Virus genome (UHGV): UHGV-1527372
DNA: 19,963 nt
Source: a virus
Strand: one strand, 5' to 3'
Below the pieces are notes generated by a model that was given only the letters and a program-made list of their open reading frames with translations, was not told where the DNA came from and searched no databases. Numbering within the stretch: position 1 is the first letter of the stretch; each line of letters begins with the position of its first letter. Position numbers and translations under genes: made by a program. Positions 39-19,963 of this stretch are shown here, one piece after another.

Positions 39-71
39 AAGGGGTTAGCGAATTCCTAACCCCTTTTTTAT
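39..71. terminator. Rho-independent terminator-like hairpin at the probable host/prophage boundary
   Basis: Perfect 10-bp stem AAGGGGTTAG / CTAACCCCTT with 7-nt loop CGAATTC, followed by TTTTTTA on the plus strand; T-rich on the other side as well. Confidence 0.5.
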
Positions 72-120
72 TGGTGGTGGCGGCAAATTGGCGGCAGAGG
101 TTGGAGCGATGGCGACAGAT

Positions 121-144
121 ATAAAAAAACCTGCCGAAGCAGGT
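121..144 (-). terminator. Intrinsic terminator downstream of ogr
   Basis: Minus strand reads ACCTGC-TTCG-GCAGGT followed by TTTTTTTAT, immediately after the ogr TGA (145-147). Confidence 0.6.
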
Positions 145-363
145 TCAAAGCCAAAGTTGCTGTTGTTGGTTTCTGATGGGGTGTGGCGGAGCAGGATCAA
201 CAGTACCCGGTTTCACAATGAATCTTGATAGCGTCTCAAAAGTGATAAATGTACATCCGCAATTTATGTTCTGGCACTGGTGATAACGTTCTTTTGTTTC
301 GGTGCTAAGGTACCGGCTAGTGCGAGCATGTGCGGCGTTTTGGCATAACGGGCAGTGCATCAT
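145..363 (-). CDS. ogr: Ogr/Delta-family zinc-finger late-gene transcriptional activator (72 aa from the ATG ATG pair at 363/360)
   Basis: MMHCPLCQNAAHARTSRYLSTETKERYHQCQNINC... has the C-X2-C ... C-X4-C zinc-finger pattern and strong similarity to P2 Ogr as recalled. AGGGG RBS lies 7-8 nt upstream of the ATG. The 87-aa TTG-start version in the ORF track is not supported. Confidence 0.9.
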   Translation of the reverse strand: MMHCPLCQNAAHARTSRYLSTETKERYHQCQNINCGCTFITFETLSRFIVKPGTVDPAPPHPIRNQQQQLWL

Positions 364-394
364 AATTATTTCCCCTGCTGGCGTATCTGAGGGA

Positions 395-422
395 ATAATA
401 AACTTCAAAATTGCATTTGCAA
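395..422 (-). promoter_or_regulatory. Candidate sigma70 promoter for ogr
   Basis: Minus strand: -35 TTGCAA (417-422), 16-nt spacer, -10 TATTAT (395-400), about 30 nt upstream of the ogr ATG. Confidence 0.4.
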
Positions 423-438
423 GTTTTGGTTTGCTTTT

Positions 439-1608
439 TCACTCCTCATTTTCTTCTGAGCTGTACTCCACATCGGAGAGTTTAACCTCAAGCTCTAAGC
501 CCGTCGTGAAACCGTTATTATTGAGGTTGTGGGTCACCTTGCTGATTAACCATGCCTGCTCGTCTATGACGCGCTTAAAGCCTGACACGCGTACAGGCGT
601 CTCAGGAAATAAATCCGCTCGCCCTAGCGCCAGTGTGATTGAAAACTCCGCAACGCCTCGCTGCAGTTTATCCCACTTAGCCTGAGCGGCGCGCATCGCC
701 TGTGCCTTTGAGGCATAGACCGTCGTCAGCGCCAGCACGTTATCGGCTTCACCGGCCATGTACTCACCCTCACGTGCTTCCTGTTCTTTTTTGACCTTTG
801 TCTTTTTGCTGACCGGCTTTGCTTTTGGGTGTTCCAGTGCGCGCAGGTGCTTCTCTTTTGGCTTGCGTTTCAGCGTTACTTTCTGCTTTTGTGGCTTCGG
901 GTCTTTGGTGTGCAACCATTTAGCAGTGACGCCGGTATAAGCCCCACGGTCGGCAATGGCAAACTGATGACGGTCACCATCACTGCGGGTCAGCGTCATT
1001 TGCGGGACGGGTTTGCCGCTGGCCGTCATCGCACTACCGGCTTTCAGAAACAACAGTTTCCCTGCCTTCACCGATACCGTTGCCCCGTTGCGGTCAGCCA
1101 GTCGACTCAAAAATACCGCGTCGGATTCCTGCGACTGGTCGATATGCGGTACCGGGATTTTTTTCAGCGATTCCGCAATGCTGGCCGTCAGTTTGTTGCG
1201 CTTTGCGATGGTACTGACCAGTTCGCCGATGGTGGTGTCGTGCCATGACTCTTCACGCCTGGAATTTAGCGTGCCGCGAAAGTCCGCGCTGCGCGCCCGG
1301 ATGGTCAGGGTATCAGGAGCCCCCCGGTGCTCAATCTCATCGACCGTAAAATCCCCCTTATTCAGCAGCGCCGAACCCTGCCAGCCAAGCCACAACGTCA
1401 GCACTGCCCCGCGCAGGGGTAACTCGACTTTCCCATCGGTGTCATCGAGCTCAATGTCGAGCTGGTCAGCTTCAAAGCCCCTATTGTCCGTCATGGTGAG
1501 AGAAATCAGCCGGTCGCTGAAGTTGCTGGTAATGTCCTGACTGTTCAGCGTCAGCATAAAAGCCGGTGCAAGGCTAGCACCGGCGTCAATTGCCATCCCC
1601 GTTATCAT
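439..1608 (-). CDS. D: Tail protein D (P2 late control gene D family)
   Basis: 389-aa ORF with ATG start; its ATG overlaps the U stop (ATGA); position between U and ogr matches P2. Contains a Lys/Pro-rich low-complexity segment. Confidence 0.9.
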   Translation of the reverse strand: MITGMAIDAGASLAPAFMLTLNSQDITSNFSDRLISLTMTDNRGFEADQLDIELDDTDGKVELPLRGAVLTLWLGWQGSALLNKGDFTVDEIEHRGAPDTLTIRARSADFRGTLNSRREESWHDTTIGELVSTIAKRNKLTASIAESLKKIPVPHIDQSQESDAVFLSRLADRNGATVSVKAGKLLFLKAGSAMTASGKPVPQMTLTRSDGDRHQFAIADRGAYTGVTAKWLHTKDPKPQKQKVTLKRKPKEKHLRALEHPKAKPVSKKTKVKKEQEAREGEYMAGEADNVLALTTVYASKAQAMRAAQAKWDKLQRGVAEFSITLALGRADLFPETPVRVSGFKRVIDEQAWLISKVTHNLNNNGFTTGLELEVKLSDVEYSSEENEE

Positions 1609-2090
1609 GCAGTGAAACCTCCGGGCATACCCTGCAGTTTATCTGTCAAATTACCGGCAGAGCCGAGAAGCTCACTGGCCTGTTTATTCAGGTCACCAAA
1701 CATCTCTGTCAGCGATTCATCAACCCGTTTTAGCGAAAGCGTGAAATCAATCTTTCTGGCCGCACCATCACTGAAAAACTCGGTGCGTGTAGTCGATACT
1801 TTATCGACGATATACATCCCGAGGATATTTCCGGTTCCCTCTATCAACGGCCACGCTCTGCCTTCATTGGCCATCACCTCTACAGCCTTAAGTGAGATCC
1901 AACCGCCAGTGATAGCGGGGTATAGCGTACCAGCAAGCTGTATAGAATTTTCTCCCTCGCCAAGAAACTGATAGGCAGGTGGTTTACCCACCCGGTCATT
2001 GGACACCCAGCGATAATCTTTCGAATGCTGCATCGACTGGTAAGGCAGGGTGCGAAGTTCAAACACAAACATTCCGAGAGCAAGCATCAT
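1605..2090 (-). CDS. U: Tail protein U
   Basis: 161 aa starting MMLALGMFVFEL, synteny T-U-D, GGGAGA RBS upstream. Confidence 0.9.
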   Translation of the reverse strand: MMLALGMFVFELRTLPYQSMQHSKDYRWVSNDRVGKPPAYQFLGEGENSIQLAGTLYPAITGGWISLKAVEVMANEGRAWPLIEGTGNILGMYIVDKVSTTRTEFFSDGAARKIDFTLSLKRVDESLTEMFGDLNKQASELLGSAGNLTDKLQGMPGGFTA

Positions 2091-2103
2091 CGTTTAATCT
2101 CCC

Positions 2104-4548
2104 TCAATAGTCGTGGGTCATGTTGGCACGCTGGCGGGCGCGTTTATCGCGCTCAATCTGTTCGAGCGTGTCGCGTAGTTGTCTGTCAAGCTGATGCCCC
2201 GGCGCAACACCTCCCGGCAGATTGATGTTGTATTCGCTTTTGCTCTGGTCAATGTAAGAGCGCCCCGCCGGTGCGGTAACTGGCTGATAAGCCTGATAGC
2301 CGCCATATGTGCTGGTTGCCGGGATGTAGGAATTACCCTGTGTGGCGGCATTGGTTTTGGCGGCGGTCTGGTCGAGGCTGTCCGACTCTTTGTTGATGAT
2401 GCCGAGCTTTTCGAGAAGCCAGTCGACACCGCTGCGCAGCTTGTTAAAAACATTGAGCGGAGCCATCAAGGCAGAGGCCAGTGCCTGACCAAATATGACG
2501 CCGACATTTTTGCAGCTATCAAGCGTTTCCTGCGTGGCCTTAACCGGTGCTATCAGGTCTTTAAACCACTGCCAGACGCCGCGCAGTTTCTCGCCGAGAC
2601 CATCAAAAATGGGAGCCAGTGGAGCGAACATTTCCCCGACTGGGGCAAAGGCACTCATGATGCCCTCAATCACTCCCGAGAAAAATGCGCTGATGGGCTC
2701 CCAATATTTACGGATGAGTAGCGCCCCCGCCACAATCGCCGCACCGACGGCCACTATCGGCCAGGTAATCGCACCGAGCGCTGTCGCAATGGCACTACCG
2801 ACGACAGTAAAGACCGTACCCAGCACGCCAGCAGCGGCGATAATGGCATTAATCCCCATGACAACCGGCCACGCAACGAGACCAATGCCGCCGATGATAC
2901 CAATCAGCGCCAGCGCACCACCGGCGATGATGCCGATAGTTTCCGCTAACTCCTTGTTGTCTTTGATCCAGTCATCAAGCTTTAGCACATACCGTGTTGC
3001 TGTCTGAGTTAGCTGACGCAATGAGCTATCTTGCTGGTCGTAGAGGTCGGTACCGACGGCCTCATAAGCGGATTGAAACTCTTTGAAGTCGCCACCTAAG
3101 TTATCCTGCATGACCTTAACCAATTCCTCGGTTTTACCGTCAGAATCCTTAATTATCTTGGTCAGTTCATCCAGTTTTCCACTGGCCGCTGCGGCCATTA
3201 ACACACTTGCAGCGGAACTGGCTTCCTCGCCGAATATCGTTTTCATATACTCGGCTTTTTGACCTGTACCGAGGTTGTTGCGCTTAAAGCTGGCTTGTAT
3301 TTCTTTCAGGATGGTAAAGATTGGCCGTGTATTGCCTTTTTTATCCATCGTCTTAACGCCAAGCTCTTTAATGGCATCATAGGCTTTGCCAGTTGGAGCC
3401 TGCAGTCGACTTAAAACAGCTCGGCTACCAGTTCCTGCCATCGAACCTATGATTTTTGCATCGTGTAGCGCACCCAGCATCGCGGCGGTTTCTTCTAGGC
3501 TGACACCGGCATCTTTGGCAACTGGACCAACATATGTAAGTGAGTCGTTTAATCCCTCAAATGATGCCTGTGTTTTATTTATCGCCATCGATATGACATC
3601 TGCTATATGCGATGCCTTGTCATCTGCGAGCCCGAATGCCGATTTGGTGCCAATAAGCAAAGCGGCGTTTTCCTCCATAGTTTTTTTATTTGCCAGCGAC
3701 ATATTCAGAATGGCCGGTGTTTGCGCCACTATGCCGTCTTTATCTGCGCCAGATTTGGCTACAATAATCTGCGCGGCGGCGGCATCATCTGCTGAGGCCG
3801 CTGAGTTATCGCCGAGCTGACGCGCCTGTTTGCGTAGAGCCTGCATTTCTGGAGACTGCTTATCGACCCCAAGCACGGCCTGCAGCTCGGAGTTTTTTTG
3901 CGCAAAGTCATAACCGGGCATCAGCAATTTAACCCCGGCCATCGTTCCCGCTGTCGCAATACCGACCCCGGCAGCACCTGCAGCGGCCATGTTACCGGCA
4001 AGCTCCTTACCCGATTTATATCGCTCTTTCACTCGGTTTAGGTGCGCCTGCTGTGCGCTGACCTTCGCCAATGCTTCACGCTGCCGGTTGAGCTGCGCCG
4101 TCGTCTCGCTGATGCGTGTTTTAAGCCCCCGCTCATCGTTTGCCAGATTGCGGGTATTGATACCGGCGGCACCCAGCTCGCGTTGCTGGCGTTTAACCGA
4201 CTCGGTGAGGCTGTTGTATTTAATCTGCAGCCCCTCGGCGGCACGTTTTGCGGATTCGAGCACCTGTGCCTGCGCTCGCGTCGGGCGCTCAGTATTTTTG
4301 AATTGCGTGGCAAGCGCTTCAGCCTCGCGCTTTGCCTTCTCCAGCGACTGGCCGGTTACGGCCAGTTGAGCGCTGGTTTTGCGAAAACCGTCAATTTTCG
4401 CGGCCTGCCCGTTCAGGTCACGCAGCCCTTTTTGTGTGTCGCGAATATCGCCCGACAGGGTTTTACTCGCGGTCTGGATGGATTTAAGCGGTCGGGTCGC
4501 CTGGTCGACCGCTTTCAGCAAAACCTCAAGTCTCAGGTTATTACTCAT
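2104..4548 (-). CDS. T: Tail tape measure protein T
   Basis: 814 aa with a coiled-coil N-terminal part and Gly/Ala-rich hydrophobic segments typical of tape measure proteins; sits directly downstream of E/E'. Confidence 0.9.
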   Translation of the reverse strand: MSNNLRLEVLLKAVDQATRPLKSIQTASKTLSGDIRDTQKGLRDLNGQAAKIDGFRKTSAQLAVTGQSLEKAKREAEALATQFKNTERPTRAQAQVLESAKRAAEGLQIKYNSLTESVKRQQRELGAAGINTRNLANDERGLKTRISETTAQLNRQREALAKVSAQQAHLNRVKERYKSGKELAGNMAAAGAAGVGIATAGTMAGVKLLMPGYDFAQKNSELQAVLGVDKQSPEMQALRKQARQLGDNSAASADDAAAAQIIVAKSGADKDGIVAQTPAILNMSLANKKTMEENAALLIGTKSAFGLADDKASHIADVISMAINKTQASFEGLNDSLTYVGPVAKDAGVSLEETAAMLGALHDAKIIGSMAGTGSRAVLSRLQAPTGKAYDAIKELGVKTMDKKGNTRPIFTILKEIQASFKRNNLGTGQKAEYMKTIFGEEASSAASVLMAAAASGKLDELTKIIKDSDGKTEELVKVMQDNLGGDFKEFQSAYEAVGTDLYDQQDSSLRQLTQTATRYVLKLDDWIKDNKELAETIGIIAGGALALIGIIGGIGLVAWPVVMGINAIIAAAGVLGTVFTVVGSAIATALGAITWPIVAVGAAIVAGALLIRKYWEPISAFFSGVIEGIMSAFAPVGEMFAPLAPIFDGLGEKLRGVWQWFKDLIAPVKATQETLDSCKNVGVIFGQALASALMAPLNVFNKLRSGVDWLLEKLGIINKESDSLDQTAAKTNAATQGNSYIPATSTYGGYQAYQPVTAPAGRSYIDQSKSEYNINLPGGVAPGHQLDRQLRDTLEQIERDKRARQRANMTHDY

Positions 4549-5028
4549 TGTGGTGTCCGCTACGCTGCAGCGCCTTTTCGCGCCATGTGATGAGCTCGGT
4601 CAGGCTCAGGGAATAGAGCTCTGATAGCGGCCAGTGGAATATCACCGCGATATCCGCCATCAGGTCATCGGTCGACAGGTCGGGCGGGAAATCTACTCCG
4701 CCGAAGCCGGTGACAAAAAACCAATCACCTTAGCGGCCAGCGACAGCATATCGGGCAGGTTCATTGCGGTAAGCTCCTGCGCCGTAAGCGCGGGGTAGGT
4801 CATGCGTGGCAATACCTTAATCAGCGCATCGACTTCGGACTGCGCCACCGCTGCCAGACTGACACCGCGCAGGGTACCGGCGTTCGGCTCAATCAGTGTG
4901 ACTTTATCTATCGTCTGACCGGCGCGCTTAATCGGCTTGTCGAGGGTCACGACGTTCGGGTTTACGGTGTCAATTTCATTGCCAGCCATATCAACAAATT
5001 CAGCGGTTTTACGTGGTGCTTTTGCCAT
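4541..5028 (-). CDS. E+E': E+E' tail assembly chaperone made by programmed -1 ribosomal frameshift
   Basis: Slippery heptamer T TTT TTG at 4714-4720 (minus strand) inside E. The -1 frame stays open for 51 more codons (VTGFGGVDFPPDL...TWREKALQRSGHHNE) and stops at a TAA that overlaps the T start. Confidence 0.8.
4693..5028 (-). CDS. E: Tail assembly chaperone E (zero-frame product)
   Basis: 111 aa starting MAKAPRKTAEF with ATG start; position upstream of T. Confidence 0.9.
   Translation of the reverse strand: MAKAPRKTAEFVDMAGNEIDTVNPNVVTLDKPIKRAGQTIDKVTLIEPNAGTLRGVSLAAVAQSEVDALIKVLPRMTYPALTAQELTAMNLPDMLSLAAKVIGFLSPASAE
4714..4720 (-). other. -1 programmed frameshift slippery site (TTTTTTG)
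   Basis: Heptamer seen directly in the sequence; matches the conserved E/E' frameshift of P2-like phages. Confidence 0.8.
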
Positions 5029-5052
5029 GATGTTTTTCTCTGCTCTGAATGG

Positions 5053-5083
5053 GGATTAATAACCGGCCAGCAGTGCTGACCGG
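5053..5083 (-). other. Hairpin between FII and E (possible attenuator)
   Basis: Minus strand CCGGTCAG-CACTG-CTGGCCGG (8-bp stem with one G-U pair) followed by TTATTAAT; the U-tract is weak. Confidence 0.3.
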
Positions 5084-5091
5084 TCAGGGAA

Positions 5092-5485
5092 TTACAGCCC
5101 GATTGCGCGGCGGTGCTGTTCCAGACGGTCGACGCCGTTCACCTTCTCAACCATGTTGACGGTATCGATTTCGATGACGTCGCTACCATCAATCGTGAGG
5201 CGGTAATAGGTGCATACGGTCGACAGTTTGGTCGAGGTGTTTTCACCCTGCTTATTCTCGCCGCCGTCGATTTCTTTATGACGGCCACGCATGACCACCT
5301 CGACCGCCACGATTTCGCCAGTGTCGTCACGTTGGTAAGAGCCAGCAAAACGCAACGGCACAGCGTCAGCACCCGGCGCGGCGTACTGCGCCCACAGCGC
5401 CACATCAGGCAGGCCACCGACAGACCACTCGACGGTTACCGTCGTTAATCTCAAGCACCTGCACGCCGTGGTGAAAATCACTCAT
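5092..5485 (-). pseudogene. FI/FII: Deletion-fusion remnant: first ~18 codons of tail sheath FI fused out of frame to the C-terminal ~112 codons of tail tube FII
   Basis: ATG at 5485..5483 encodes MSDFHHGVQVLEINDG (P2 FI N-terminus) and then hits a stop after ~10 junk codons. In another frame, from about 5430, the sequence encodes EWSVGGLPD...VNGVDRLEQHRRAIGL (C-terminal two-thirds of FII). There is no sheath-sized ORF anywhere in the window. Confidence 0.7.
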
Positions 5486-5580
5486 CCGGTTAACTCCGTG
5501 GTTAGTGGGCGAGTGTTATTGTCCTGGCTGGTCTGGTGAGGGGCTATTTGTCGGCGATGGGTAGCGGATGGCACATAAAC

Positions 5581-5611
5581 AAATTACAAAAAAGACGGGC
5601 ATCAGCCCGCC
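5581..5611 (-). terminator. Intrinsic terminator after G (end of the V-G tail operon)
   Basis: Minus strand GGCGGGC-TGAT-GCCCGTC followed by TTTTTTGTAATTT, immediately after the G stop. Confidence 0.7.
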
Positions 5612-5616
5612 TCGCA

Positions 5617-6213
5617 TTACTCCGGTTTAACCGGCCACTCGATATCCGGTGCCGTGGAGGTATCGACCGCGTTCAGCGCCTGAATGTATTTCATCCACGC
5701 AATCAGGCTGTCCTTGTCATCGTCGCTGATGATGCCGAGCTGCAGCTCAGTCTGCCACAGGCTGATTGTGCTTTGGGCTTCGGCCAGCAATGAGGCTTTT
5801 TTCTGTTCTGCTGCTGCAATCTGACCGCTTTTCTGCGCATCCGCATTCGTAACCCATTCGCTACCGTTCCAGCGGTCATAAGGCGTCAGTGGTTCGATGA
5901 TGGTCACATTATCAGGATAATCACCGAGCCCGGTTATCTCGACAGGCTTGCCGGTTTCCGTGTCATATACAGTTTCTCCCCGGTGGTCGATAACATAAAC
6001 CCACCCATCAAGACTGACCGAGCGGCAAATGGCAAAACCGTCTTTCTCAGCTACCGGTGCATCGATACAGGAGTTGGCTGGAATCCCCACGCCCACCGCC
6101 AAAAACTCGGTGGAAGTCGACAAAAACTCTCGCGTTTCCCCGTCGTAGTTAAAGACCGTCACATCGCCAGCTTTTGTGGCAATACCACTTTTATTCAATG
6201 TTGCTTTCGCCAT
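5617..6213 (-). CDS. G: Tail fiber assembly protein G
   Basis: 198 aa with tail-fiber-assembly C-terminal motifs (PYDRWNG, SDDDK, APDIEWPVKPE); its ATG overlaps the H stop (TAATG). Confidence 0.85.
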   Translation of the reverse strand: MAKATLNKSGIATKAGDVTVFNYDGETREFLSTSTEFLAVGVGIPANSCIDAPVAEKDGFAICRSVSLDGWVYVIDHRGETVYDTETGKPVEITGLGDYPDNVTIIEPLTPYDRWNGSEWVTNADAQKSGQIAAAEQKKASLLAEAQSTISLWQTELQLGIISDDDKDSLIAWMKYIQALNAVDTSTAPDIEWPVKPE

Positions 6214-7295
6214 TATGCCGCCCTCACGATGTAATTAAATGCGATGTTGCGTGGTCGGGTTTCAGTTCCGCCTATAATATTGGTACTCAACCCGGTCGCG
6301 GTTCGCTTATTGTTTTTGTTACCTTCTGCAAGACAGTTGTAATCATCATTGCCGATTAGAGTGCCGTTGGCATCAATATCAAGCGGTGCCAGCGAGCTCG
6401 TCGCTGAGCTTAACGTCAGCATTTCATCCGAGCTTGGCAGACTTGTCAGAGGTACCTCGTTACGTGATACTCCTGCATAAAAATAGGACTCATGCCGATG
6501 AGCTTTGAAGTCATCTACTTGGGCACTGAGCAATACTCGACCGCTGTCAATACCTCGCCCGTCATCCCAGCCACGCAAAAACTCACCGCGTAAATCAGGC
6601 AGATTGCCAGAAGGATAAGCGACGGCCAGCTTTGGATATTTCGCCTTATCGAACGCTGCACCGTTGCATTTTAACCACCCCTCCGGCGGTGTTGCCTGCG
6701 GCCACGGCAGCGGAAAACCAACCGGAATATATTTATCAATATCCGCTGTTTTGAGGTACTGAGCGTGCGGGTCAGCAGCGGCAAGGTGTGCAGCCATCAG
6801 GCTATCGGCATAAGCTTTTACCTCGATAACCTTATCGTCGACATACTGGCGCGTTGCCAGCACGACCGACGGGTCGATTTTCAGGGTAATAGCCGACGTG
6901 CTCGACACAATCAGAATCATGCGAATGGTCTGCGTGCGGCCGCTTCCCTCCTGCAGTTGCGGCTTGTAGGTTTCCGGGCAGTTCGCCACGGCAATAAGCA
7001 CACCGGCATCATCATAGAGACCAATCTCGCGGATCCAGAAACCACCCTCATTCTCGGGAATAATTTGTTCCGCGATAATCTGGCTGGTATTGGCCGGGTC
7101 AACGGTCAGCAGGTTCAGCGGCGCGATGCGCTTCTGGTTAATGAGCTTCGTCTGCGCCGGGTCAGGGGTCGGCAACGTACCATTCGCATCACCGACGGCC
7201 ATCTGCGTCAGGTTGAGTTTGGTACCGAGTGCCGCCGCGTTCGCCAGCCGCGCCGCGCCCTGATTGGTCAGAATGGCAAAATATTTTGCGGTCAT
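6213..7295 (-). CDS. H: Tail fiber protein H (short form, 360 aa) with phage tail-collar-like C-terminal domain
   Basis: Conserved P2 H N-terminus (MAVGD..., GGFWIREIGLYDDAGVLIAVAN) and a collar-like C-terminal region (PEGWLKCNGAAFDKAKYPKLA...LPDLRGEFLRG). Confidence 0.85.
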   Translation of the reverse strand: MTAKYFAILTNQGAARLANAAALGTKLNLTQMAVGDANGTLPTPDPAQTKLINQKRIAPLNLLTVDPANTSQIIAEQIIPENEGGFWIREIGLYDDAGVLIAVANCPETYKPQLQEGSGRTQTIRMILIVSSTSAITLKIDPSVVLATRQYVDDKVIEVKAYADSLMAAHLAAADPHAQYLKTADIDKYIPVGFPLPWPQATPPEGWLKCNGAAFDKAKYPKLAVAYPSGNLPDLRGEFLRGWDDGRGIDSGRVLLSAQVDDFKAHRHESYFYAGVSRNEVPLTSLPSSDEMLTLSSATSSLAPLDIDANGTLIGNDDYNCLAEGNKNNKRTATGLSTNIIGGTETRPRNIAFNYIVRAA

Positions 7296-7900
7296 GCGTT
7301 CACTCTCAGGTTATCAATCAAATGGATGGCCGAGGCCGGGTAATATTCACCGCCGACGACAATTTCCTCAGGGGTGTAGGGGTAAACGGTCAGCGCGTCG
7401 CCGTCGTAACATCCCGCGCCGACATACAGCTCGCCGGTCGCACTCAGGCTGATAGCCAGCCCTGTCAAATGACGGCTTGCCGGTTTGGCGTCTTCAATCA
7501 GGCGCTCAAGCTCCTGATACATTTCGTCAGTGATGCCGCTATCGAGCACGCCGACAACGAGGCGGAATGTGCCAGGCTCCTCGTCGAGCTGCCACCACTC
7601 GCGCACCTCAATCAGAAAACCGAGCGGCTCAACCACCCGACGCAATGCGCTGATGGTGCCTTTGTGCTGATGGACGAAAAACGAAGACGCGCAGACGCTG
7701 CGCTTTGTCGCCTCCGGCCACTTCTCATCCCACCGGTCGACCGACAGCGCCCACGCCAGATACGGCAGCAGGTTTACCGGGCAGGTACGCCAGTTCCACA
7801 GGGTGCGCAACGGTACCGGCACGCGCTGAATCTCAGAAAGTGCAGCAGCGGCGGCAACTTCCAGCGGCGACGAGCCAGCGGGTAACAGCCTGTCACTCAT
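7292..7900 (-). CDS. I: Baseplate protein I
   Basis: 202 aa starting MSDRLLPAGSSPLEVAAA with WNWRTCP and RWDEKWPEATKR motifs; stop overlaps H start, start overlaps J stop. Confidence 0.9.
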   Translation of the reverse strand: MSDRLLPAGSSPLEVAAAAALSEIQRVPVPLRTLWNWRTCPVNLLPYLAWALSVDRWDEKWPEATKRSVCASSFFVHQHKGTISALRRVVEPLGFLIEVREWWQLDEEPGTFRLVVGVLDSGITDEMYQELERLIEDAKPASRHLTGLAISLSATGELYVGAGCYDGDALTVYPYTPEEIVVGGEYYPASAIHLIDNLRVNA

Positions 7901-8801
7901 CCGATCCCCCGATAGTTATCTGGTACTCGGTGCAGTTCGACGCCTGCGACTTACTCAGCACAATGTCGGCCTGCGGTGATGCCAGCTCGACACGCTGTAC
8001 CCCCTCAACATGCAGCGCCGCGTAAATGGCTGACAGTCGAATATCACGCCCGAGACGGTGCTGCGCACTGATGTAGCTCTTCAGCTTCTGCTCTGATGCC
8101 TGCCTGATGGGCTCAGACTCCGGGCCGGGGTAAACGTAGAGCGTTGCGTCAATCTGGTAGGGCACAATCTCGGCTGACTGGACGGTAACCCGGTCAGCCA
8201 CCGGGCGCACATCTTCGGCGTTCAGCGCTTTATCAACAATCGCCAGTAGTTCAGGGCTGGCAGTGCCGTCACCCTCGCGCGATAGCACGGTAATCGTCAC
8301 GCAGGCTGGCGACGGACTTGCGACCGAGACGTCAGCGACCCGCCCGTCGGCGCTGCGACCGTGATACTCATATGCGCCGACCGGACCCGCCACGCTCAAC
8401 CCCTCAAACGCCTGTTGCGTGCGCAGTCGCAGGTCAGTATCAGATTCCATAACGGCAGGTGTCGGCGGGATGGTGGTGTCATCCGCCGGGGTGATGGTCA
8501 GGCGTTCGGTATTGTTGTTCCCTGCCACGACGTCGAGGTCGTTACCGGCGGAGTAGGCCAGCGTCACTGCCTGCGCTGCTTCGTTCACCCGCTGACGCCA
8601 GATAACTTCACGGTAGGCGTTTTCCTGCAGCAGCTTAACAATCGGCTCTGACTCAAGTGTGAGCGTCCGGGCAATGGCCTCCTGTTGGTCTTCGGGATAG
8701 AGCGAAATCAGCGTCGCAATGCGTTCCGCAAGGATAGTTTCATAGTCCAGTTCCTCAACCACATCGGGAACGGGTAACTGACTCAGGTCAACGGTTGCCA
8801 T
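7893..8801 (-). CDS. J: Baseplate assembly protein J
   Basis: 302 aa, synteny W-J-I, ATG start 10 nt after the W-frame TAA. Confidence 0.9.
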   Translation of the reverse strand: MATVDLSQLPVPDVVEELDYETILAERIATLISLYPEDQQEAIARTLTLESEPIVKLLQENAYREVIWRQRVNEAAQAVTLAYSAGNDLDVVAGNNNTERLTITPADDTTIPPTPAVMESDTDLRLRTQQAFEGLSVAGPVGAYEYHGRSADGRVADVSVASPSPACVTITVLSREGDGTASPELLAIVDKALNAEDVRPVADRVTVQSAEIVPYQIDATLYVYPGPESEPIRQASEQKLKSYISAQHRLGRDIRLSAIYAALHVEGVQRVELASPQADIVLSKSQASNCTEYQITIGGSDE

Positions 8802-8807
8802 AGTGAT

Positions 8808-9370
8808 TTAACTCAGTGAAACAGTGGTTGAAACTGACGCACCGGTATCGGTACGCATCCCGGTAATATCGACATACATTTCGCCAGCGTCGCCGGTCTC
8901 AAAGTTGATGGCGGTAAGCCTGATGCGCGGCTCCCACTTCTGGATACCAGCGGTACGGTTGCAGTGATGGACTCCGATGCCGTCACGTCGGCAGTTTTGA
9001 TACCGCTGACCGTCAGCGCGCCGGTCTCGGGCTCGTACTCAATGACCGCACCATCAGGGAAAGCCACATGCCACGCATCCGCCGAGGCAGACGGGGCGGG
9101 GTTATCGTCGGAGAAAATACCCGGCAGCACGAAAGCGGTATCAAGCTCGCCACCGATTGCCAGCAGCAGAACCTGCTCACCGACCGAGGGAGCCCACCAC
9201 GTCCGCGAACGACCGGCGCGGGTGGTCAGCCAGTTCAGCCATGTAGTCTGGATCCCGCCGCTTTGTACGCGGCACAGCCCCTGCACGGTATCAACCTCAG
9301 TCACCACACCTGAGCGGATGAGGTTGCGAATCGCACGTGCGAGCTCCTGTATCGTGGATAACGTATTCAT
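8808..9370 (-). pseudogene. V/W: Deletion-fusion remnant: N-terminal ~142 codons of baseplate spike V fused out of frame to the last ~45 codons of baseplate protein W
   Basis: ORF begins MNTLSTIQELARAIRN...GIKTADVTASESITATVPLV (V-like) then runs into ~40 junk codons. A different frame encodes IQKWEPRIRLTAINFETGDAGEMYVDITGMRTDTGASVSTTVSLS* (gp25/W-like C-terminus) ending at TAA 8808-8810 just before J. Only ~570 nt lie between the V start and the J start, where V plus W would need about 1 kb. Confidence 0.65.
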
Positions 9371-9438
9371 AGTGCAAGGATGCCTCTGGTCTGGAGTCGC
9401 GCCAATTCGCGCGGCTCCGGTGGTGGTTCACACAATAT

Positions 9439-9888
9439 TTATTTACCGAGATGCCTGATAATGACGTCTTCAATCATCTGCTCATCGTCGCGGGTGAAAC
9501 CGAGTAACGGGCGCGCCTCGTACTGCACATCCCGGCTGTTGCGGTTTGGTCTGTCTTTGAGCCCGTACTGATGCACCCGCGCCATGCGCTGCACCTTGCC
9601 GGTAAACTCCACCACCGCCGCACTGTCGCTGCCTTTGGCTTTCATAAAGCGACTGGTGCGCAGTTTGGCGAACATTTCACGTTTAATCCGACCTTTCTTG
9701 TTCCTCACCGGCTGGCGCTTTCGTGCCGCATACGGGGTGCCGTCTGGTGCCTGCTGGCGCTTGATACGCTGTTGCTGACTGGTACGCAGCTTTTTCGCAA
9801 TCTCAGCCGCCATTTGCCTACGCGTCGCCGATGACAGGCTGGCAATCAGACCGGCAAGGCGTTCCTGCAGTGCGGTTAACTCACTCAT
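9439..9888 (-). CDS. S: Tail completion protein S
   Basis: 149 aa, start overlaps R stop (ATGAGTGA), synteny R-S-V. Confidence 0.85.
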   Translation of the reverse strand: MSELTALQERLAGLIASLSSATRRQMAAEIAKKLRTSQQQRIKRQQAPDGTPYAARKRQPVRNKKGRIKREMFAKLRTSRFMKAKGSDSAAVVEFTGKVQRMARVHQYGLKDRPNRNSRDVQYEARPLLGFTRDDEQMIEDVIIRHLGK

Positions 9889-10357
9889 CCCACTTACTCA
9901 CCAGTTCGCCGTTAACGTACAGCTCGACCGGGCGCGTCACCGGCTCAGGCAGCGGCGGCTCAGGGGCATAGCTGACATGCAGCGCGCCGTCGACCTCTTT
10001 GACGAGCGTGCGCTCGGTGAGCCTCAGGCTGATACTGATATCGAGCGAATCGTCGTTATTGATATCAATAATCCAGGTGAATCCTTTTTCCCGCCCGTCG
10101 TCGGTGGTCATAATGTCCGGCTGATGTTCACGCAGCCACGCCTGCACCGGCACGAATATCAAATCAAGGTCACCGGTGAAGTCGGTCACCAACACGTTAA
10201 GCACGTACACCTTTTCAAACGACAGCGAGCTCGCCAGTCTGGAATCGGTATGGCCGTTGTCGGCAAAAAGGCGCAGCATATCGGGGTTGTTTCGGAGCTG
10301 CGGCACGGCGTTAATCAGCGCTTTGCGCAGGCTTTTGTGCTTCTGCATCGAGTTCAT
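9881..10357 (-). CDS. R: Tail completion protein R
   Basis: 158 aa with FEKVYVLNVLVTDFTGDLDLIFVP and NGELVSKWDE matching P2 gpR as recalled; true start may be the internal Met at codon 4. Confidence 0.85.
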   Translation of the reverse strand: MNSMQKHKSLRKALINAVPQLRNNPDMLRLFADNGHTDSRLASSLSFEKVYVLNVLVTDFTGDLDLIFVPVQAWLREHQPDIMTTDDGREKGFTWIIDINNDDSLDISISLRLTERTLVKEVDGALHVSYAPEPPLPEPVTRPVELYVNGELVSKWDE

Positions 10358-10601
10358 CCTGACAGTGTTTGACGGTTTTGACCTGTAGCGCGCAGGCGAT
10401 CAGCGCGCCCTCAAGGCGGCGGATATCTGCGCTCAGGTCACCATTGGTTTTCGGGTCACTTCCCGGCATCGGGCAAAGGCTCACTCTCGGGCATCCGTTG
10501 ACCACAATCACCGGCGCTGGCGCAGGCGGTGCGGATGTGCAACCGACGCACAACATCAGGTAAAGCAGCGTTATACCAGCGGCGAAAGGCTTCATTTTCA
10601 T
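10311..10601 (-). CDS. lysC: LysC (Rz1-like o-spanin lipoprotein), nested out of frame in the 3' end of lysB
   Basis: 96 aa with signal peptide, Cys-containing lipobox-like LCVGC and a Pro-rich mature part (SAPPAPAPVIVV); overlaps lysB in a different frame as in P2. Confidence 0.7.
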   Translation of the reverse strand: MKMKPFAAGITLLYLMLCVGCTSAPPAPAPVIVVNGCPRVSLCPMPGSDPKTNGDLSADIRRLEGALIACALQVKTVKHCQDELDAEAQKPAQSAD

Positions 10602-10869
10602 TAAGTAACCTCGTTATTGATTGCTCGCGGCGGCTGGCTTCCTCGCTGGCCTTTGCGAGCTGTTCACGCAGTGCCACCTGGGCAGATTCATTACGTCTGG
10701 CAAGCTGACCGGCAACACTGAGCTGATTTTTCAGCATGCCAATCGTCGTCTTTTGTTCGCTCGCGACGCGGTTTGCTGTCTCAAAGGAGCGGGATAAATT
10801 GCCGTTCTCATGGCGCAACCACAACATCCCGAGCACAGTCAGCACCAGAAGTGTAATCAGGATTTTCAT
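10456..10869 (-). CDS. lysB: LysB (Rz-like i-spanin)
   Basis: Starts MKILITLLVLTVLGMLWL (N-terminal TM) followed by a coiled-coil periplasmic domain; its ATG overlaps the K stop (ATGA). Confidence 0.8.
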   Translation of the reverse strand: MKILITLLVLTVLGMLWLRHENGNLSRSFETANRVASEQKTTIGMLKNQLSVAGQLARRNESAQVALREQLAKASEEASRREQSITRLLNENEAFRRWYNAALPDVVRRLHIRTACASAGDCGQRMPESEPLPDAGK

Positions 10870-11363
10870 TCCATTACCCCGCCAGCGGTGCGCCATACGG
10901 TGACCAGTTTATCGAGGCTGTGCTCACGTTGGCCGTAACCGGCACCCGGTAACGACGCCCAGATATTGCGGCACCGTGAAATTGCCCGCTCAATACGCCC
11001 CGCCTTAATATCCTCAATGGCACCGCGTTCGCGGATTAACTGAATCGCAAGTTTGTCCTGCGACAACGGGCTGAAATCAGACAATGCGAGTTGTTTCTGA
11101 TAATGCGGCCAGTAGAGATAAAGCTGCTGGTAACGCCCTGATGCCGTGGATTTTTCGCCGCGTCGATTAAACACTTTCGCTGGTCTGCCATGTGCGAAAG
11201 GGTGGTCGGTGTAGTCGGTGAAAATTTCCGGTTTGCCATCAAGGCCAGTGACAATGACGTCGTAACCACGATTTTTCGTCAGCGGATGCGTCGCCGTCCC
11301 TTCGGAATAGGCCAGCATGTCCAGAAATGCGGCGATATTCTGGTGAGTATTAATGACCGGCAT
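10866..11363 (-). CDS. K: Endolysin K (phage lysozyme)
   Basis: MPVINTHQNIAAFLDMLAYSEGTATHPLTKNRGYDVIVTGLDGKPEIFTDY... is near-identical to P2 K as recalled; start taken at the internal ATG at 11363. Confidence 0.9.
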   Translation of the reverse strand: MPVINTHQNIAAFLDMLAYSEGTATHPLTKNRGYDVIVTGLDGKPEIFTDYTDHPFAHGRPAKVFNRRGEKSTASGRYQQLYLYWPHYQKQLALSDFSPLSQDKLAIQLIRERGAIEDIKAGRIERAISRCRNIWASLPGAGYGQREHSLDKLVTVWRTAGGVME

Positions 11364-11646
11364 CGCTATCCCCCTGTTGTGACTTAAAGCGGCGCTGAAT
11401 GGCAATTTCTACCACCTGATAACCTGCAATGCCGAGCATGGATCCAATCCCACAAACGGCAGGCAGTGACATATCTGGAAACTGCACCAGAACAACACCG
11501 GCGACCATTGAAACAAAACCGCCGAGCAGCATGCGGCCGATAAACAGGCGCGGGGTAATGGGCTCACCACCCGCCAGCACTTTTCCGACAACAATCATCA
11601 CGCCAATCACAAACAGTGACAGGACGCCTTTTTCCCCTTCTGTCAT
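11350..11646 (-). CDS. Y: Holin Y
   Basis: 98 aa with hydrophobic TM segments, GGGAG RBS, position between X and K. Confidence 0.85.
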   Translation of the reverse strand: MTEGEKGVLSLFVIGVMIVVGKVLAGGEPITPRLFIGRMLLGGFVSMVAGVVLVQFPDMSLPAVCGIGSMLGIAGYQVVEIAIQRRFKSQQGDSDAGH

Positions 11647-11649
11647 GGT

Positions 11650-11853
11650 TTACTCCCAAAGGTTGATAGTTTCTGTTACGGGTGACGATGCCACGTCGGG
11701 CAGGTCAATCGCCGTGCCATGCGGCAGAATGACGCCCAGCTCAGACAGACCGGGATTAGCCTGCAGCACCGTCTCGACCACGCCCTCAGTGCGCCCGTAA
11801 TACCGGGCGCAAAGCGCGTCGAGGGTGTCGCCCTGCATCGCGTAGACTTTCAT
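11650..11853 (-). CDS. X: Tail protein X (LysM-like)
   Basis: MKVYAMQGDTLDALCARYYGRTEGVVETVLQANPGLSELGVILPHGTAIDLPDV... matches P2 X as recalled; start at internal ATG 11853, overlapping the L stop. Confidence 0.85.
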   Translation of the reverse strand: MKVYAMQGDTLDALCARYYGRTEGVVETVLQANPGLSELGVILPHGTAIDLPDVASSPVTETINLWE

Positions 11854-12362
11854 CAGAGCTGACCCACGATGCAGCGCGGCTTGTCCTGCAGACGCGAGAC
11901 CGACCAGCGCATATCCCGCCACAGGTCATCAATGGTGGTTTCGACGCTGTCGGCTTTTTTGTCACCCTTGCCCGTGGCCTCAACCCCGCGATAACGCTCA
12001 TACAGGGTGGCGGTCGCCATCGCCGTCACGGCGCTGAGGTAGTGGAAAACGCGCACATTCTCGCCGTCGATTTCCTCGGCGTCAGGCACGTCGGCCAGTG
12101 TCTTAAACCCTGCGGCAATCTGGCGCAGCCGGTAGTCGTAAAGCTCCGCATTGGTTTCCGCCATGCCGGTCTTGATGGCGTTGCGCAGGCGCGCATCGGA
12201 AACCGTCTGCTCAAGGCGCATCAGTTCGCGCACCCGCTTCGGATCCACATCAGGGAAAAAGAACGTGTTTTTAATCACTGCGTCGCCCGTCTCCGGTGCG
12301 GGAATCACCACGCCCGGTACGTCCTGCGGTTCGTCGGGCTGATTCAGTATTACTGTCGTCAT
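11853..12362 (-). CDS. L: Head completion/stabilisation protein L
   Basis: 169 aa, GAGG RBS, synteny M-L-X. Confidence 0.85.
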   Translation of the reverse strand: MTTVILNQPDEPQDVPGVVIPAPETGDAVIKNTFFFPDVDPKRVRELMRLEQTVSDARLRNAIKTGMAETNAELYDYRLRQIAAGFKTLADVPDAEEIDGENVRVFHYLSAVTAMATATLYERYRGVEATGKGDKKADSVETTIDDLWRDMRWSVSRLQDKPRCIVGQL

Positions 12363-12455
12363 GACAACCTCATTAGGTTGGGCGGTGGACGCCGGTCGCC
12401 GTCAGGGTCAAAACCCGCTTTGACCGGCGTGCCGCCCGGCTCGGGGAGCGTTCAG

Positions 12456-13205
12456 TTAACCGGCGGTTTTTACCGCCTTTGGTGGACGCCCGCGCTTTGC
12501 CGCCGGTTTGTTGGCAGGTTTGCGCGTGCGCGGTTTAGTCGTTTTACGGGGCGCGGCCTCTGGCTTTGGCTTCAATGCCCGTTCCAGTCGCTCAATCTCC
12601 TTGCGCACACCGGCATTGCGGTCGAGCTGCATCGCGCGCTGAAACTGCGCCAGCGCCTCTGCATTCATACCGGCATCACGCAGGGTCAGGCCTGTCACCT
12701 TATGCAGACGGGCGCGCACCATATCGGGAACGTCAGCGCCGTCGGTCAGGTCGATAGTGGTCTGCAGCCAGGAACGGTCGACAGACTCACCGGCATCGCG
12801 CAGGCGCTGCGTAGCAAGCGCCACTTCCTCAACCAGCATGTAAGGTGTTGTGCGGCGGTGGTCAGAGGTGAGGCCGTATTTCAGCGCGTACGGGGCAATT
12901 TCCAGCGCGCCAGCGATATCACCGGCATCGAGACGCCACAGCATGACGGTCATGACAATGTCATCCTGCGCACCACGGCCATCAGCCAGCACACCGGCGA
13001 CCCACGGCGCATAGAACGGCAGCAGCTCGCGCTTTTTCTCGGCTTTACGTTCGTTTGAACGGATGTTTTTTAACGTGCGGCGGTCATCGGCCAGCTTAAC
13101 CAGCATCTGCTCATAGGCGGTTGCATGGCGCAGCGGGGCTTGCTCCCGCTGCGCGGCTTGAGAGGCCGAGACCCGCATCATGTGACGCTGTGCGGGGCTC
13201 GTCAT
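12456..13205 (-). CDS. M: Terminase small (endonuclease) subunit M
   Basis: 249 aa, basic C-terminal tail, ATG 4 nt after the N stop. Confidence 0.85.
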   Translation of the reverse strand: MTSPAQRHMMRVSASQAAQREQAPLRHATAYEQMLVKLADDRRTLKNIRSNERKAEKKRELLPFYAPWVAGVLADGRGAQDDIVMTVMLWRLDAGDIAGALEIAPYALKYGLTSDHRRTTPYMLVEEVALATQRLRDAGESVDRSWLQTTIDLTDGADVPDMVRARLHKVTGLTLRDAGMNAEALAQFQRAMQLDRNAGVRKEIERLERALKPKPEAAPRKTTKPRTRKPANKPAAKRGRPPKAVKTAG

Positions 13206-13208
13206 GGT

Positions 13209-14276
13209 TTAGGCTCCGCTTTCCGGTGCTGCAGGTGCGGTGAAATCGCCCAGGGTGATGTTTTCCAGCAGGCACCCGGCGGCATACGCCTCGACCACAT
13301 AGTCGATGTTCATCGACTCGTAGTTTTCAACGCGGTCTTTTTTCGGGTTTTCATCAATGCTGCGGCGGTGGCTCTCATCCATGAAATAGATAGAGAGGTT
13401 TTCCAGCGTGGTCACTAACACGGCATTCGCCGGGAAGTACGGCACACGCACAGCAGGCAGGTTGCCGATTCGCTTCTGACTGATGATGATATCTGCCGCA
13501 AGCGCCTCGCTGTTTTCCTGCGGCTTGTTCACCAGCGGGAAATATTTGTCGGCCAGCAGCTTACGGCCAACGATGGCAACGAGTTTCGGGTCATCCTGAT
13601 AAACCTCGTCAATCAGGTTGTTGGTGGCGTCCATCACCAGCGCGTCGAGGTTCTCATAGTCGCCGTTTCGACCTACACGAATCACTGCTGAAACGACCTT
13701 ACCGTCAGCGTCGGTGATGTTGCTCATCACGCGCGTCGGGGCTTCATTGCGGTATTTCTGCAGCCAGCCGACGGCCACATCCTGCAGCATCGGATTTTTG
13801 GTGCGGTCAGAGGTGGCGGCGCGGGTGGTACCGTTAAAACCGGCCATGATGAAATCCAGTGCCTGACGTTTGACAATGGCGTCGCGGATGCGGCGCTGGA
13901 AGTCCTGAAAACGCGCCCACAGGTCGAGGGTTTTATATTTCAGATGGAAGTCAAAATTAATTTGGTCGCACTCGTACTTGTTGGACTCAAGCGCGGTGAA
14001 GTCGGCGGTCTTACGCTCATCATCGCCCGAGGTGTCGGTCGTGCTGGCGATAGTACCGGTCACACCGACGCCGATTTTCTCACCCTTCATTTCTGCGACC
14101 GGCAGAATATTAATCGTCTGCAGAAACGCGGATGACTCCTGCACTTTGTTCATCAGTGTTTGCGTGACGGACGGCTCGACGGTGAATTTTTTACTGACGT
14201 CATCAGTGCTGATGCCGTTCAGCTCAGCGACGCGGGTCAGATAGGCATTGAACTTAAAACGGGTATCCGGGCGCAT
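13209..14276 (-). CDS. N: Major capsid protein N
   Basis: 355 aa, AGGAAA RBS, synteny O-N-M. Confidence 0.9.
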   Translation of the reverse strand: MRPDTRFKFNAYLTRVAELNGISTDDVSKKFTVEPSVTQTLMNKVQESSAFLQTINILPVAEMKGEKIGVGVTGTIASTTDTSGDDERKTADFTALESNKYECDQINFDFHLKYKTLDLWARFQDFQRRIRDAIVKRQALDFIMAGFNGTTRAATSDRTKNPMLQDVAVGWLQKYRNEAPTRVMSNITDADGKVVSAVIRVGRNGDYENLDALVMDATNNLIDEVYQDDPKLVAIVGRKLLADKYFPLVNKPQENSEALAADIIISQKRIGNLPAVRVPYFPANAVLVTTLENLSIYFMDESHRRSIDENPKKDRVENYESMNIDYVVEAYAAGCLLENITLGDFTAPAAPESGA

Positions 14277-18190: not shown

Positions 18191-18200
18191 TCACCTTTTA

Positions 18201-18225
18201 AGCCGCCATTTTGGCGGCTTTTGCT
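18201..18225 (+). terminator. Intrinsic terminator after Q
   Basis: AGCCGCC-ATTTT-GGCGGCT followed by TTTTGCT, 10 nt after the Q stop. Confidence 0.65.
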
Positions 18226-18228
18226 ATG

Positions 18229-18453
18229 TTAGCCTTTAGACTTTTTAGGATCATCTTTTCTCTGATAAGTGCGTTCTTCCTGAATTTTCCCATCTTCCTT
18301 GTGAATTTTGACCGAGCCTGTTTTGTTCGACATAAACTCAGATGTTGTTTTAATCAGCTCGGCCTTTGTGGGCGCGGTCTTGCTAGGGCGGTCATTGCCC
18401 TCTTTTTGCAACTTCCACTTATCGCCATCTTTTGTAATATGATAGTTATCCAT
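18229..18453 (-). CDS. DUF2188-like small protein (moron between portal gene and cos)
   Basis: MDNYHITKDGDKWKLQKEGNDRPSKTAPTKAELIKTTSEFMSNKTGSVKIHKEDGKIQEERTYQRKDDPKKSKG fits the DUF2188 pattern as recalled. Strong GGAGG RBS 5 nt upstream of the ATG at 18453. Markedly AT-rich compared with the phage backbone. Confidence 0.6.
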   Translation of the reverse strand: MDNYHITKDGDKWKLQKEGNDRPSKTAPTKAELIKTTSEFMSNKTGSVKIHKEDGKIQEERTYQRKDDPKKSKG

Positions 18454-18546
18454 TAAAGCCTCCAACTGTTGTGGGGAACATAAAGTCTCAATATGGATAT
18501 TAGCCAAAGCGAAACCGTAAAATTGTGCAACTGATCCCATCCTTTA

Positions 18547-18646
18547 GCACCACGCCACAGACGCACCACGCGCCCACGATCACACCCGGCCACTACAGCG
18601 CCGTCACGACGTTCTCAGACGATAATTTTTAATAATACGCACCACC
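18547..18646. repeat. Three GCACCAC(G/C) direct repeats flanking the cos side (candidate terminase recognition elements)
   Basis: GCACCACG at 18547-18554 and 18563-18570, GCACCACC at 18639-18646, all within about 110 bp of the cos core. Confidence 0.3.
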
Positions 18647-19540: not shown

Positions 19541-19664
19541 ATTATCGCCCTCAATGAATTTTATTTAGTGCTGCCACAGCGCCACTATAAAACCCACTAA
19601 GGTAACGTCCCATTCATCACTGGTGTGTAACCAATAAAACATCGAGAAACTTTGAGAGGAAGAA

Positions 19665-19735: not shown

Positions 19736-19963
19736 TTAATGCAGCCAGCTATCGTCCTCCCATACCTGCTGCATGATTTCCATTACTCGTTTTTTATCTT
19801 CGTCCAGTTTCAAACCGCTTAGTTCAACGCCATTAGCGGAGCCCTTGCGAATTCGGATAGCAGTCTTTGGGTAAATAGGTTGAAGATTGCGGTACAGTTC
19901 AGCCTCAAGGTAATGACTCCAACTTATTGATAGTGTTTTATGTTCAGATAATGCCCGATGACT
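19736..19963 (-). CDS. Partial gene (C-terminal 75 codons; start lies beyond the window end), unknown function
   Basis: Open frame from the window edge, ...YLEAELYRNLQPIYPKTAIRIRKGSANGVELSGLKLDEDKKRVMEIMQQVWEDDSWLH*, ending at TAA 19736-19738. Not reported in the ORF track because its start is outside the window. Confidence 0.5.
   Translation of the reverse strand, partial: SHRALSEHKTLSISWSHYLEAELYRNLQPIYPKTAIRIRKGSANGVELSGLKLDEDKKRVMEIMQQVWEDDSWLH

Follow-up and report, generated by a model that had tools for sequence, protein, structure and literature searches.

The stretch of DNA analysed here (19,963 nucleotides, in the following called the window) most probably represents the late-gene half of a P2/186-like (Peduoviridae) prophage, which is integrated beside rplS in the E. 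coli chromosome and which is best understood as a recently inactivated, clonally inherited defective prophage, that is, as a case of ordinary prophage decay and not as a new system. We consider this reading very probable. When compared with its intact relatives, the window lacks 1,319 bp in the FI-FII region and 417 bp in the V-W region and carries an IS1 element in its dinI-like gene. FI and FII, named according to the annotation of P2 and 186, encode the tail sheath and the tail tube, both of which are essential.

The element and its intact relatives

In a megablast search of the region 4600-6300 against phage records, P2/186-type phages were matched, and in each match about 950 query bases corresponded to about 2,270 phage bases extending across the genes annotated as 'tail sheath FI' and 'tail tube FII'. 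In the annotated regions of Escherichia phage vB_EcoM-613R3 (613R3) and of phage 186, the genes T, E', E, FII and FI follow one another in the canonical order. As a reference we used L003, the complete prophage beside rplS in E. coli FDAARGOS_1253 (NZ_CP069549.1). The window, L003, 613R3 and 186 have in common the gene order ogr, D, U, T, E', E, FII, FI, G, H, I, J, which is continued by W, V, S, R, the lysis genes, X, L, M, N and O and then by P and Q, and the side of integration is the same in the window as in the intact relatives. Identity across FII-E-T is 99.4% to 613R3 and about 93% to phage 186. Late-gene order and nucleotide similarity thus place the element among the Peduoviridae, and the Pfam families of the called genes fit the P2 modules; the complete set of essential morphogenetic genes, as expected of a viable phage, is not present in the window.

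The blastn segments shared with L003 are listed in Table 1. Apart from the gap of 1,319 bp, window positions 56-7092 are 100% identical to L003 with 0 mismatches, and to the left of the FI-FII junction (junction 1) a single mismatch was found in 5,438 bp. Mismatches to L003 cluster from position 8187 onward, inside gpJ, and this mosaic boundary has no relation to junction 1. A mosaic recombination breakpoint at junction 1 could be ruled out, since 56-7092 is without mismatch and divergence begins at 8187 only.

The cargo of the window differs from that of L003 at two variable sites. At 9371-9499 the pentapeptide-repeat gene which the closest intact relative carries between V and S is missing, and at 18191-18586 a hypothetical gene of 1,005 bp, downstream of the portal gene, is replaced by a small DUF2188 ORF. 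The differences at both sites are swaps at variable cargo sites and no lesions.

Table 1. Features of the window and segments shared with the reference prophage L003
Feature	Window positions	Strand	L003 positions	Identity	Remarks
FI' remnant ORF, 26 codons	5405..5485	-			16 sheath codons (5485-5438), 10 out-of-frame codons from FII DNA, TGA (5407-5405)
FII (tail tube) remnant	5092..5436	-			codons 59-172 and stop; identical to L003 FII
129-aa GTG-initiated ORF	5092..5481	-			as called by gene callers; 15 junk residues and FII 59-172
Deletion junction (junction 1)	5437..5438	.			TA at both parental breakpoints; blastn overlap 5433-5438
Junction palindrome CGACGGT-T-ACCGTCG	5430..5444	.			7+7 bp; left arm from FII, right arm from FI
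Intergenic region upstream of FI start	5486..5616	-		131/131	identical to L003
Second lesion	8813..9370	-			gpV codons 1-142 and 43 out-of-frame codons from gpW DNA
Third lesion: IS1 end in prophage dinI-like gene	19910..19963	.			last 54 bases of the window
blastn segment	1-5438		3001-8438	99.98%	
blastn segment	5433-8946		9752-13265	99.0%	
blastn segment	8945-9370		13681-14106	95.8%	
blastn segment	9500-18190		15238-23929	97.0%	
blastn segment	18587-19909		25160-26482	98.6%	

Lesions in the tail genes and in the dinI-like gene

According to the initial annotation, a deletion of about 1.3 kb had joined the beginning of FI out of frame to an N-terminally truncated FII, and the comparison with intact relatives bears this out. 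L003 positions 8439-9757, exactly 1,319 bp, are missing from the window when it is set against 613R3, 186 and the FDAARGOS_1253 prophage, and the gap offsets against 613R3 and 186 are the same as those against L003. Of the missing DNA, 1,132 nt belong to FI, 15 nt to the spacer and 172 nt to FII, and with it FI codons 17-392 (376 codons) and FII codons 1-58 (58 codons) were lost; the earlier estimates of about 380 and about 60 codons were of the right order and are replaced here by the counted values. Since 1,319 is not divisible by 3, the first 16 codons of FI are fused out of frame to what is left of FII.

From the ATG at 5485, a frame of the minus strand reads MSDFHHGVQVLEINDG, then NRRVVCRWPA, and then ends in a stop. 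The 16 residues of MSDFHHGVQVLEINDG are identical (16/16) to those at the beginning of the L003 sheath protein (392 aa), and the origin of this N-terminus from FI, which had been named as one of the points on which the reading of the region could fail, held up. They are all that remains of the sheath (gpFI in P2, J in 186), the full length of which is about 392 aa. Another frame of the minus strand reads ...TVEWSVGGLPDVALWAQ... and continues to the FII C-terminus ...LEQHRRAIGL, with the stop at 5092. This tube remnant retains residues 59-172 together with a match to the family PF04985, and it has neither a start codon nor a ribosome-binding site of its own, the start, the first 58 codons and the spacer with the ribosome-binding site having been deleted. 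The ORF of 129 aa which gene callers assign to it begins with a GTG situated 4 nt past the FI ATG, and a precomputed Pfam match (PF04985, Phage_tube) exists for it.

A second break in the tail genes, the gpV-gpW deletion, had been overlooked in the initial annotation. It comprises 417 bp and has its junction at the TA 8945-8946 (junction 2); the start of gpW and about 70 of its codons are lost. The deletion of 417 bp is confirmed by a closer relative, strain P13-6. An inverted repeat of 4+4 bp is found at junction 2.

Homology to L003 stops at window position 19909, corresponding to L003 26482, inside a DinI-family CDS (26309-26542). A 59-mer at the IS1 end has 71,119 matching places, annotated as IS1A-family transposase. 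The end of the contig at 19963 is explained by this copy of IS1, and the more than 9,000 records matched by a search with the whole window are likewise due to the IS1 end.

Of the other late genes checked, ogr, D, U, T, E/E', G, H, I, J and R have the same length as in L003, as have the lysis genes and X, L, M, N, O, P and Q, and gpS has 149 codons as compared to 151 in L003. The capsid, scaffold, terminase and portal genes are full-length.

Reality of the junction and joining of its ends

By exact-sequence lookup the exact fusion ORF of 129 aa was found on at least 11 contigs. Ten contigs carrying the junction were aligned, coming from 9 metagenome or read-set samples, namely the Logan samples ERR15952809, SRR31800383 and SRR31800605 and the ENA samples ERZ1745538, ERZ1745288, ERZ28625908 (Qin-2014 by name), ERZ19635716, ERZ27294159 and ERZ27294008. 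At least three contig-naming styles are represented among them (NODE_, k119_, scaffold, Logan). Identity of the 10 contigs to the window is 99.6-100%; those with longer alignments (8-20 kb) show 0-2 base differences from it, and contig NODE_1453 of ERZ1745538 (20,112 bp) is 100% identical over the 15,481 bases compared. An exact lookup of the 185-aa ORF that the second deletion produced agrees with this. The contigs that reach into the host all show the same flank, rplS-trmD-rimM-rpsP-ffh, and thus the same chromosomal site, and the identity of this host flank to E. coli chromosomes is 99.6% at best among complete genomes.

In view of this distribution it is scarcely credible that the true genome has an intact FI-FII region and that the contig was collapsed or mis-joined at a short repeat, a possibility which the initial annotation had itself raised. 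The window does look like a low-coverage metagenome contig (the name of the identical NODE_1453 gives a coverage of 6.5), and the junction occurs in 0 of 5,426 complete E. coli genomes and in 0 GTDB representative genomes. However, the identical junction recurs across the 9 samples and the different naming styles, including long contigs of 11-32 kb, and the second deletion and the same flanks co-occur with it on the same contigs. In addition, the longest exact direct repeat near the FI-FII breakpoints is 5 bp and the repeat at the breakpoints themselves 2 bp (imperfectly, 5/6); as repeats of 2-6 bp lie far below any assembly k-mer, a k-mer collapse is not possible. Thus, neither a breakpoint repeat of k-mer length or more nor a confinement of the junction to a single assembly was found, as would be expected if the assembly had collapsed.

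The prophage type as such is carried by 70 of the 5,426 complete E. coli genomes, and both the FI-FII and the V-W region are intact in 70/70 of them; the V-W deletion, like the one in FI-FII, is found in 0/5,426. No exact match to the FI-FII junction was obtained in the contigs of the GTDB species representatives, none to either junction in the JGI metagenome contig collection, and no NCBI accession exists for the exact 129-aa and 185-aa fusion proteins. The doubly deleted allele is therefore that of one real clone, so far encountered in metagenome-derived and Logan assemblies only. The source samples are probably gut samples, judging by the name of one of them, and finished genomes seem to include no representative of the host clone.

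Since the window is free of mismatches to L003 from 56 to 7092 outside the gap, the parental breakpoint sequences are known exactly. With a slash marking the breakpoint, the left parental end reads ...CGACGGTTA/ACGC and the right one ...GCGGGTA/CCGTCG; in longer display the left site is ...CTCGACGGTTA/ACGC and the right site ...GACGCGGGTA/CCGTCGTT, and the product at junction 1 reads ...CTCGACGGTTACCGTCGTT. The same TA is present at both breakpoints and one copy of it is kept, as in a microhomology deletion; it lies within CGGTTA in FII and within CGGGTA in FI, which match at 5/6 positions. Neither an IS sequence nor a recombinase site was found at either deletion junction. A short sequence shared in this way is the signature of RecA-independent short-homology illegitimate recombination, by which, as we infer, the FI-FII deletion arose.

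According to this reading, a single event in one bacterial lineage would have joined the TA of CGGTTA in FII to the TA of CGGGTA in FI, either by replication slippage or by microhomology end-joining after a break, and the removal of 1,319 bp left the 26-codon FI' ORF and a tube remnant without a start. An independent second event, the deletion of 417 bp, also at a TA, destroyed gpV and gpW, and IS1 landed in the dinI-like gene. The outcome is a recently inactivated, vertically inherited and presumably neutral defective prophage. The deletion resembles known short-homology recombination in E. coli in its kilobase scale, in the 2-bp repeat of which one copy is kept and in the lack of an IS or recombinase site, but differs in that the junction also unites a pre-existing inverted repeat of 7 bp. 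Short-homology pathways neither need nor predict an inverted repeat at the junction, and an inverted repeat of this length is rarer than expected from a simple null (0.2-2%), which is a misfit of the joining model.

The palindrome GACGGT-T-ACCGTC had been described at 5431-5443, where it is indeed present, and it extends by one further pair to 7+7 bp. Folded as DNA, it forms a hairpin of -6.4 kcal/mol, and 8/200 shuffles fold equally well. The suggestion that it is a deletion scar left by hairpin-mediated excision has to be given up, as the intact parent already has the two arms, in FII and in FI respectively (L003 8430-8436 and 9757-9763, 1.3 kb apart). Neither of the arms, CGACGGT and ACCGTCG, is part of the deleted interval, and both were retained; as they pre-exist in the parent, nothing was newly templated at the junction. 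To obtain a null, 60,000 deletions with a 2-bp microhomology were simulated in the parent prophage. The junction was spanned by an inverted repeat of 6 bp or more in 0.74% of these deletions and of 7 bp or more in 0.2%, and by DNA folding energy 1.6-2.3% of the simulated junctions fold equally well. We therefore regard the palindrome as mildly unusual, by statistics that were chosen after the feature had been seen.

It is conceivable, albeit unlikely, that DNA secondary structure picked the breakpoints, be it that a hairpin nuclease such as SbcCD cut a native hairpin in FII at the border of stem and loop, or that pairing of the distant arms CGACGGT and ACCGTCG brought the ends together before they were joined. 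The parental FII does contain such a hairpin, CTCGACGG-N11-TCGTCGAG (L003 8428-8454, window about 5428-5438), with -6.8 kcal/mol and 1/200 shuffles equal to it, and the left breakpoint falls exactly at the 5' border between its stem and its loop. The low frequency of a perfect 7+7 palindrome among the simulated junctions points in the same direction, as does the small inverted repeat in which junction 2 lies, CTGG-ATA-CCAG, the loop of which contains the TA. However, the repeat at junction 2 is at chance level (9.6% in the null, with an energy at about the 30th-50th percentile), and the statistic for junction 1 was picked once the palindrome had been seen. A stem of 7 bp closing a loop of 1.3 kb would be energetically negligible, inverted homology favours inversion over deletion, and the arms were retained outside the deletion, unlike in classical palindrome-stimulated slippage. 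Short-homology joining without a guiding structure thus remains the preferred reading.

Several more specific routes were considered and rejected. Palindrome-stimulated slippage of the Glickman-Ripley or Tn10 precise-excision type classically deletes the arms of an inverted repeat that is flanked by direct repeats, and the geometry found here, with the arms retained, is the opposite one. A templated scar of the P-nucleotide type, as left by hairpin opening, is ruled out by the presence of the palindromic bases in the parental flanks. Crossover by a serine invertase (Gin/Cin-type) at a 2-bp core does not fit because the centre of symmetry is the single base 5437 and not the TA; moreover, no invertase gene adjoins FI in the window, although the relative 613R3 has one in this place. 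An adjacent deletion mediated by IS1 was ruled out by the lack of IS sequence at either junction.

The motif GGWTACC occurs in both junction products, as GGTTACC at 5434-5440 and as GGATACC at 8942-8948, with the TA in the same register, for which the joining model does not account either. The window contains four such 7-mers as compared to 2.6 expected, and the presence of the motif at two junctions may be due to chance.

Probable consequences for the element

The expectation that the element can no longer build a contractile tail agrees with our results, as the sheath gene is down to 16 codons and the tube gene lacks its first 58, from which we infer the loss of assembly. No sheath, functional tube, gpV spike or gpW would be made, and tail assembly would be blocked twice, once by the FI-FII and once by the gpV-gpW lesion. 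The element may still produce heads and lysis functions.

The intergenic stretch that precedes the FI start (Table 1) also contains a terminator-like hairpin with a T-run belonging to the upstream fibre operon (stem-loop 5613-5592). In the annotation of phage 186 the late promoter pJ sits upstream of FI, and the 186 stretch homologous to this region carries pJ, the B-binding site and t45. Thus, the region holds the position of the late promoter (pJ/P_F-type), which would presumably still be active. An exact match to the P2-type late-promoter dyad TGT-N12-ACA was not found in 5486-5616, the sole match in the window being at 19624, so that the case for retention of the promoter rests on the identity of the region to that of the intact relative. 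A sigma-70 promoter scan of 4900-5800 was negative, as is to be expected of a late promoter that depends on an activator. The FI ATG is preceded by a well-spaced GGAG ribosome-binding site, which should allow it to outcompete the GTG situated 4 nt later; translation of the 129-aa FII' product is therefore probably marginal, with little of the product made.

The location of both deletions in tail genes could hint at selection, although, roughly estimated, nearly half of the late region consists of tail genes. It could be imagined that a tail-less element, competent for heads and lysis, was kept as useful, either by packaging DNA and borrowing the tails of a co-resident P2-like helper in the manner of a satellite, or by expressing the FII remnant from the intact FI promoter and poisoning the tail assembly of superinfecting P2-like phages. 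We consider such a selected or domesticated state highly improbable. The full-length capsid, terminase, portal and lysis genes, the unchanged region upstream of FI, the FII' frame opened by the GTG and the occurrence of the clone in at least 9 samples all speak in its favour. However, the near-identity to intact prophages means that the lesions are too recent to show purifying selection, and the IS1 in the same element also points to decay. Most tail genes (E, T, U, D, G, H, I, J, R, S) have been kept, unlike in a streamlined satellite, the poor translation expected of FII' argues against a poisoning tube, and the fact that all copies belong to one clone at one chromosomal site points to vertical inheritance and not to mobility. 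No evidence for a domesticated function of the element was found. Helper-dependent persistence, an interfering tube remnant made at low level from the GTG, or an uncharacterised structure- or sequence-directed deletion process are, even when taken together, very unlikely.

R-type tailocins and satellites such as P4 and the capsid-forming PICIs resemble the element insofar as they derive from, or depend on, a subset of myovirus structural modules. R-type tailocins keep the sheath and the tube and lose the heads, whereas the element shows the opposite pattern, and with sheath, tube, V and W broken and the head genes full-length it does not belong to the tailocins. Satellites combine a streamlined genome with mobility, whereas the element keeps most of its tail genes and is found as one clone at one site; a phage satellite could be ruled out on these grounds.

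Ordinary decay of a defective prophage accommodates all three lesions. In reviews of 'grounded' or defective prophages, deletion and IS insertion are described as the usual ways in which such elements degenerate, and cryptic or 'grounded' prophages of enterobacteria likewise show internal deletions and IS elements, vertical inheritance at a fixed site and otherwise intact genes (PMC6379469). In contrast to these, the decay seen here is at a very early stage, with three lesions only in an element that is otherwise near-identical to functional phages.

The decay of prophages by deletion and IS insertion is already well known, and no new biological principle is involved. The present case is distinguished by the precise allele, by the clonal spread of this allele through several metagenome cohorts and by a decay that has only just begun, and the element offers a clean example, dated by identity, of the first steps of this process, namely two microhomology deletions and one IS1. 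The carrier would be a gut E. coli clone which is present in several metagenome cohorts and missing from the complete genomes searched. Prophage predictors would probably score the element as intact, although it would be unable to form tailed particles on its own.

For annotation, it follows that the 129-aa 'major tail tube protein' and the 185-aa 'baseplate assembly protein V' are pseudogene fragments. In the source annotations both fragments are treated as ordinary proteins, the one by its Phage_tube match and the other as 'phage baseplate assembly protein V'.
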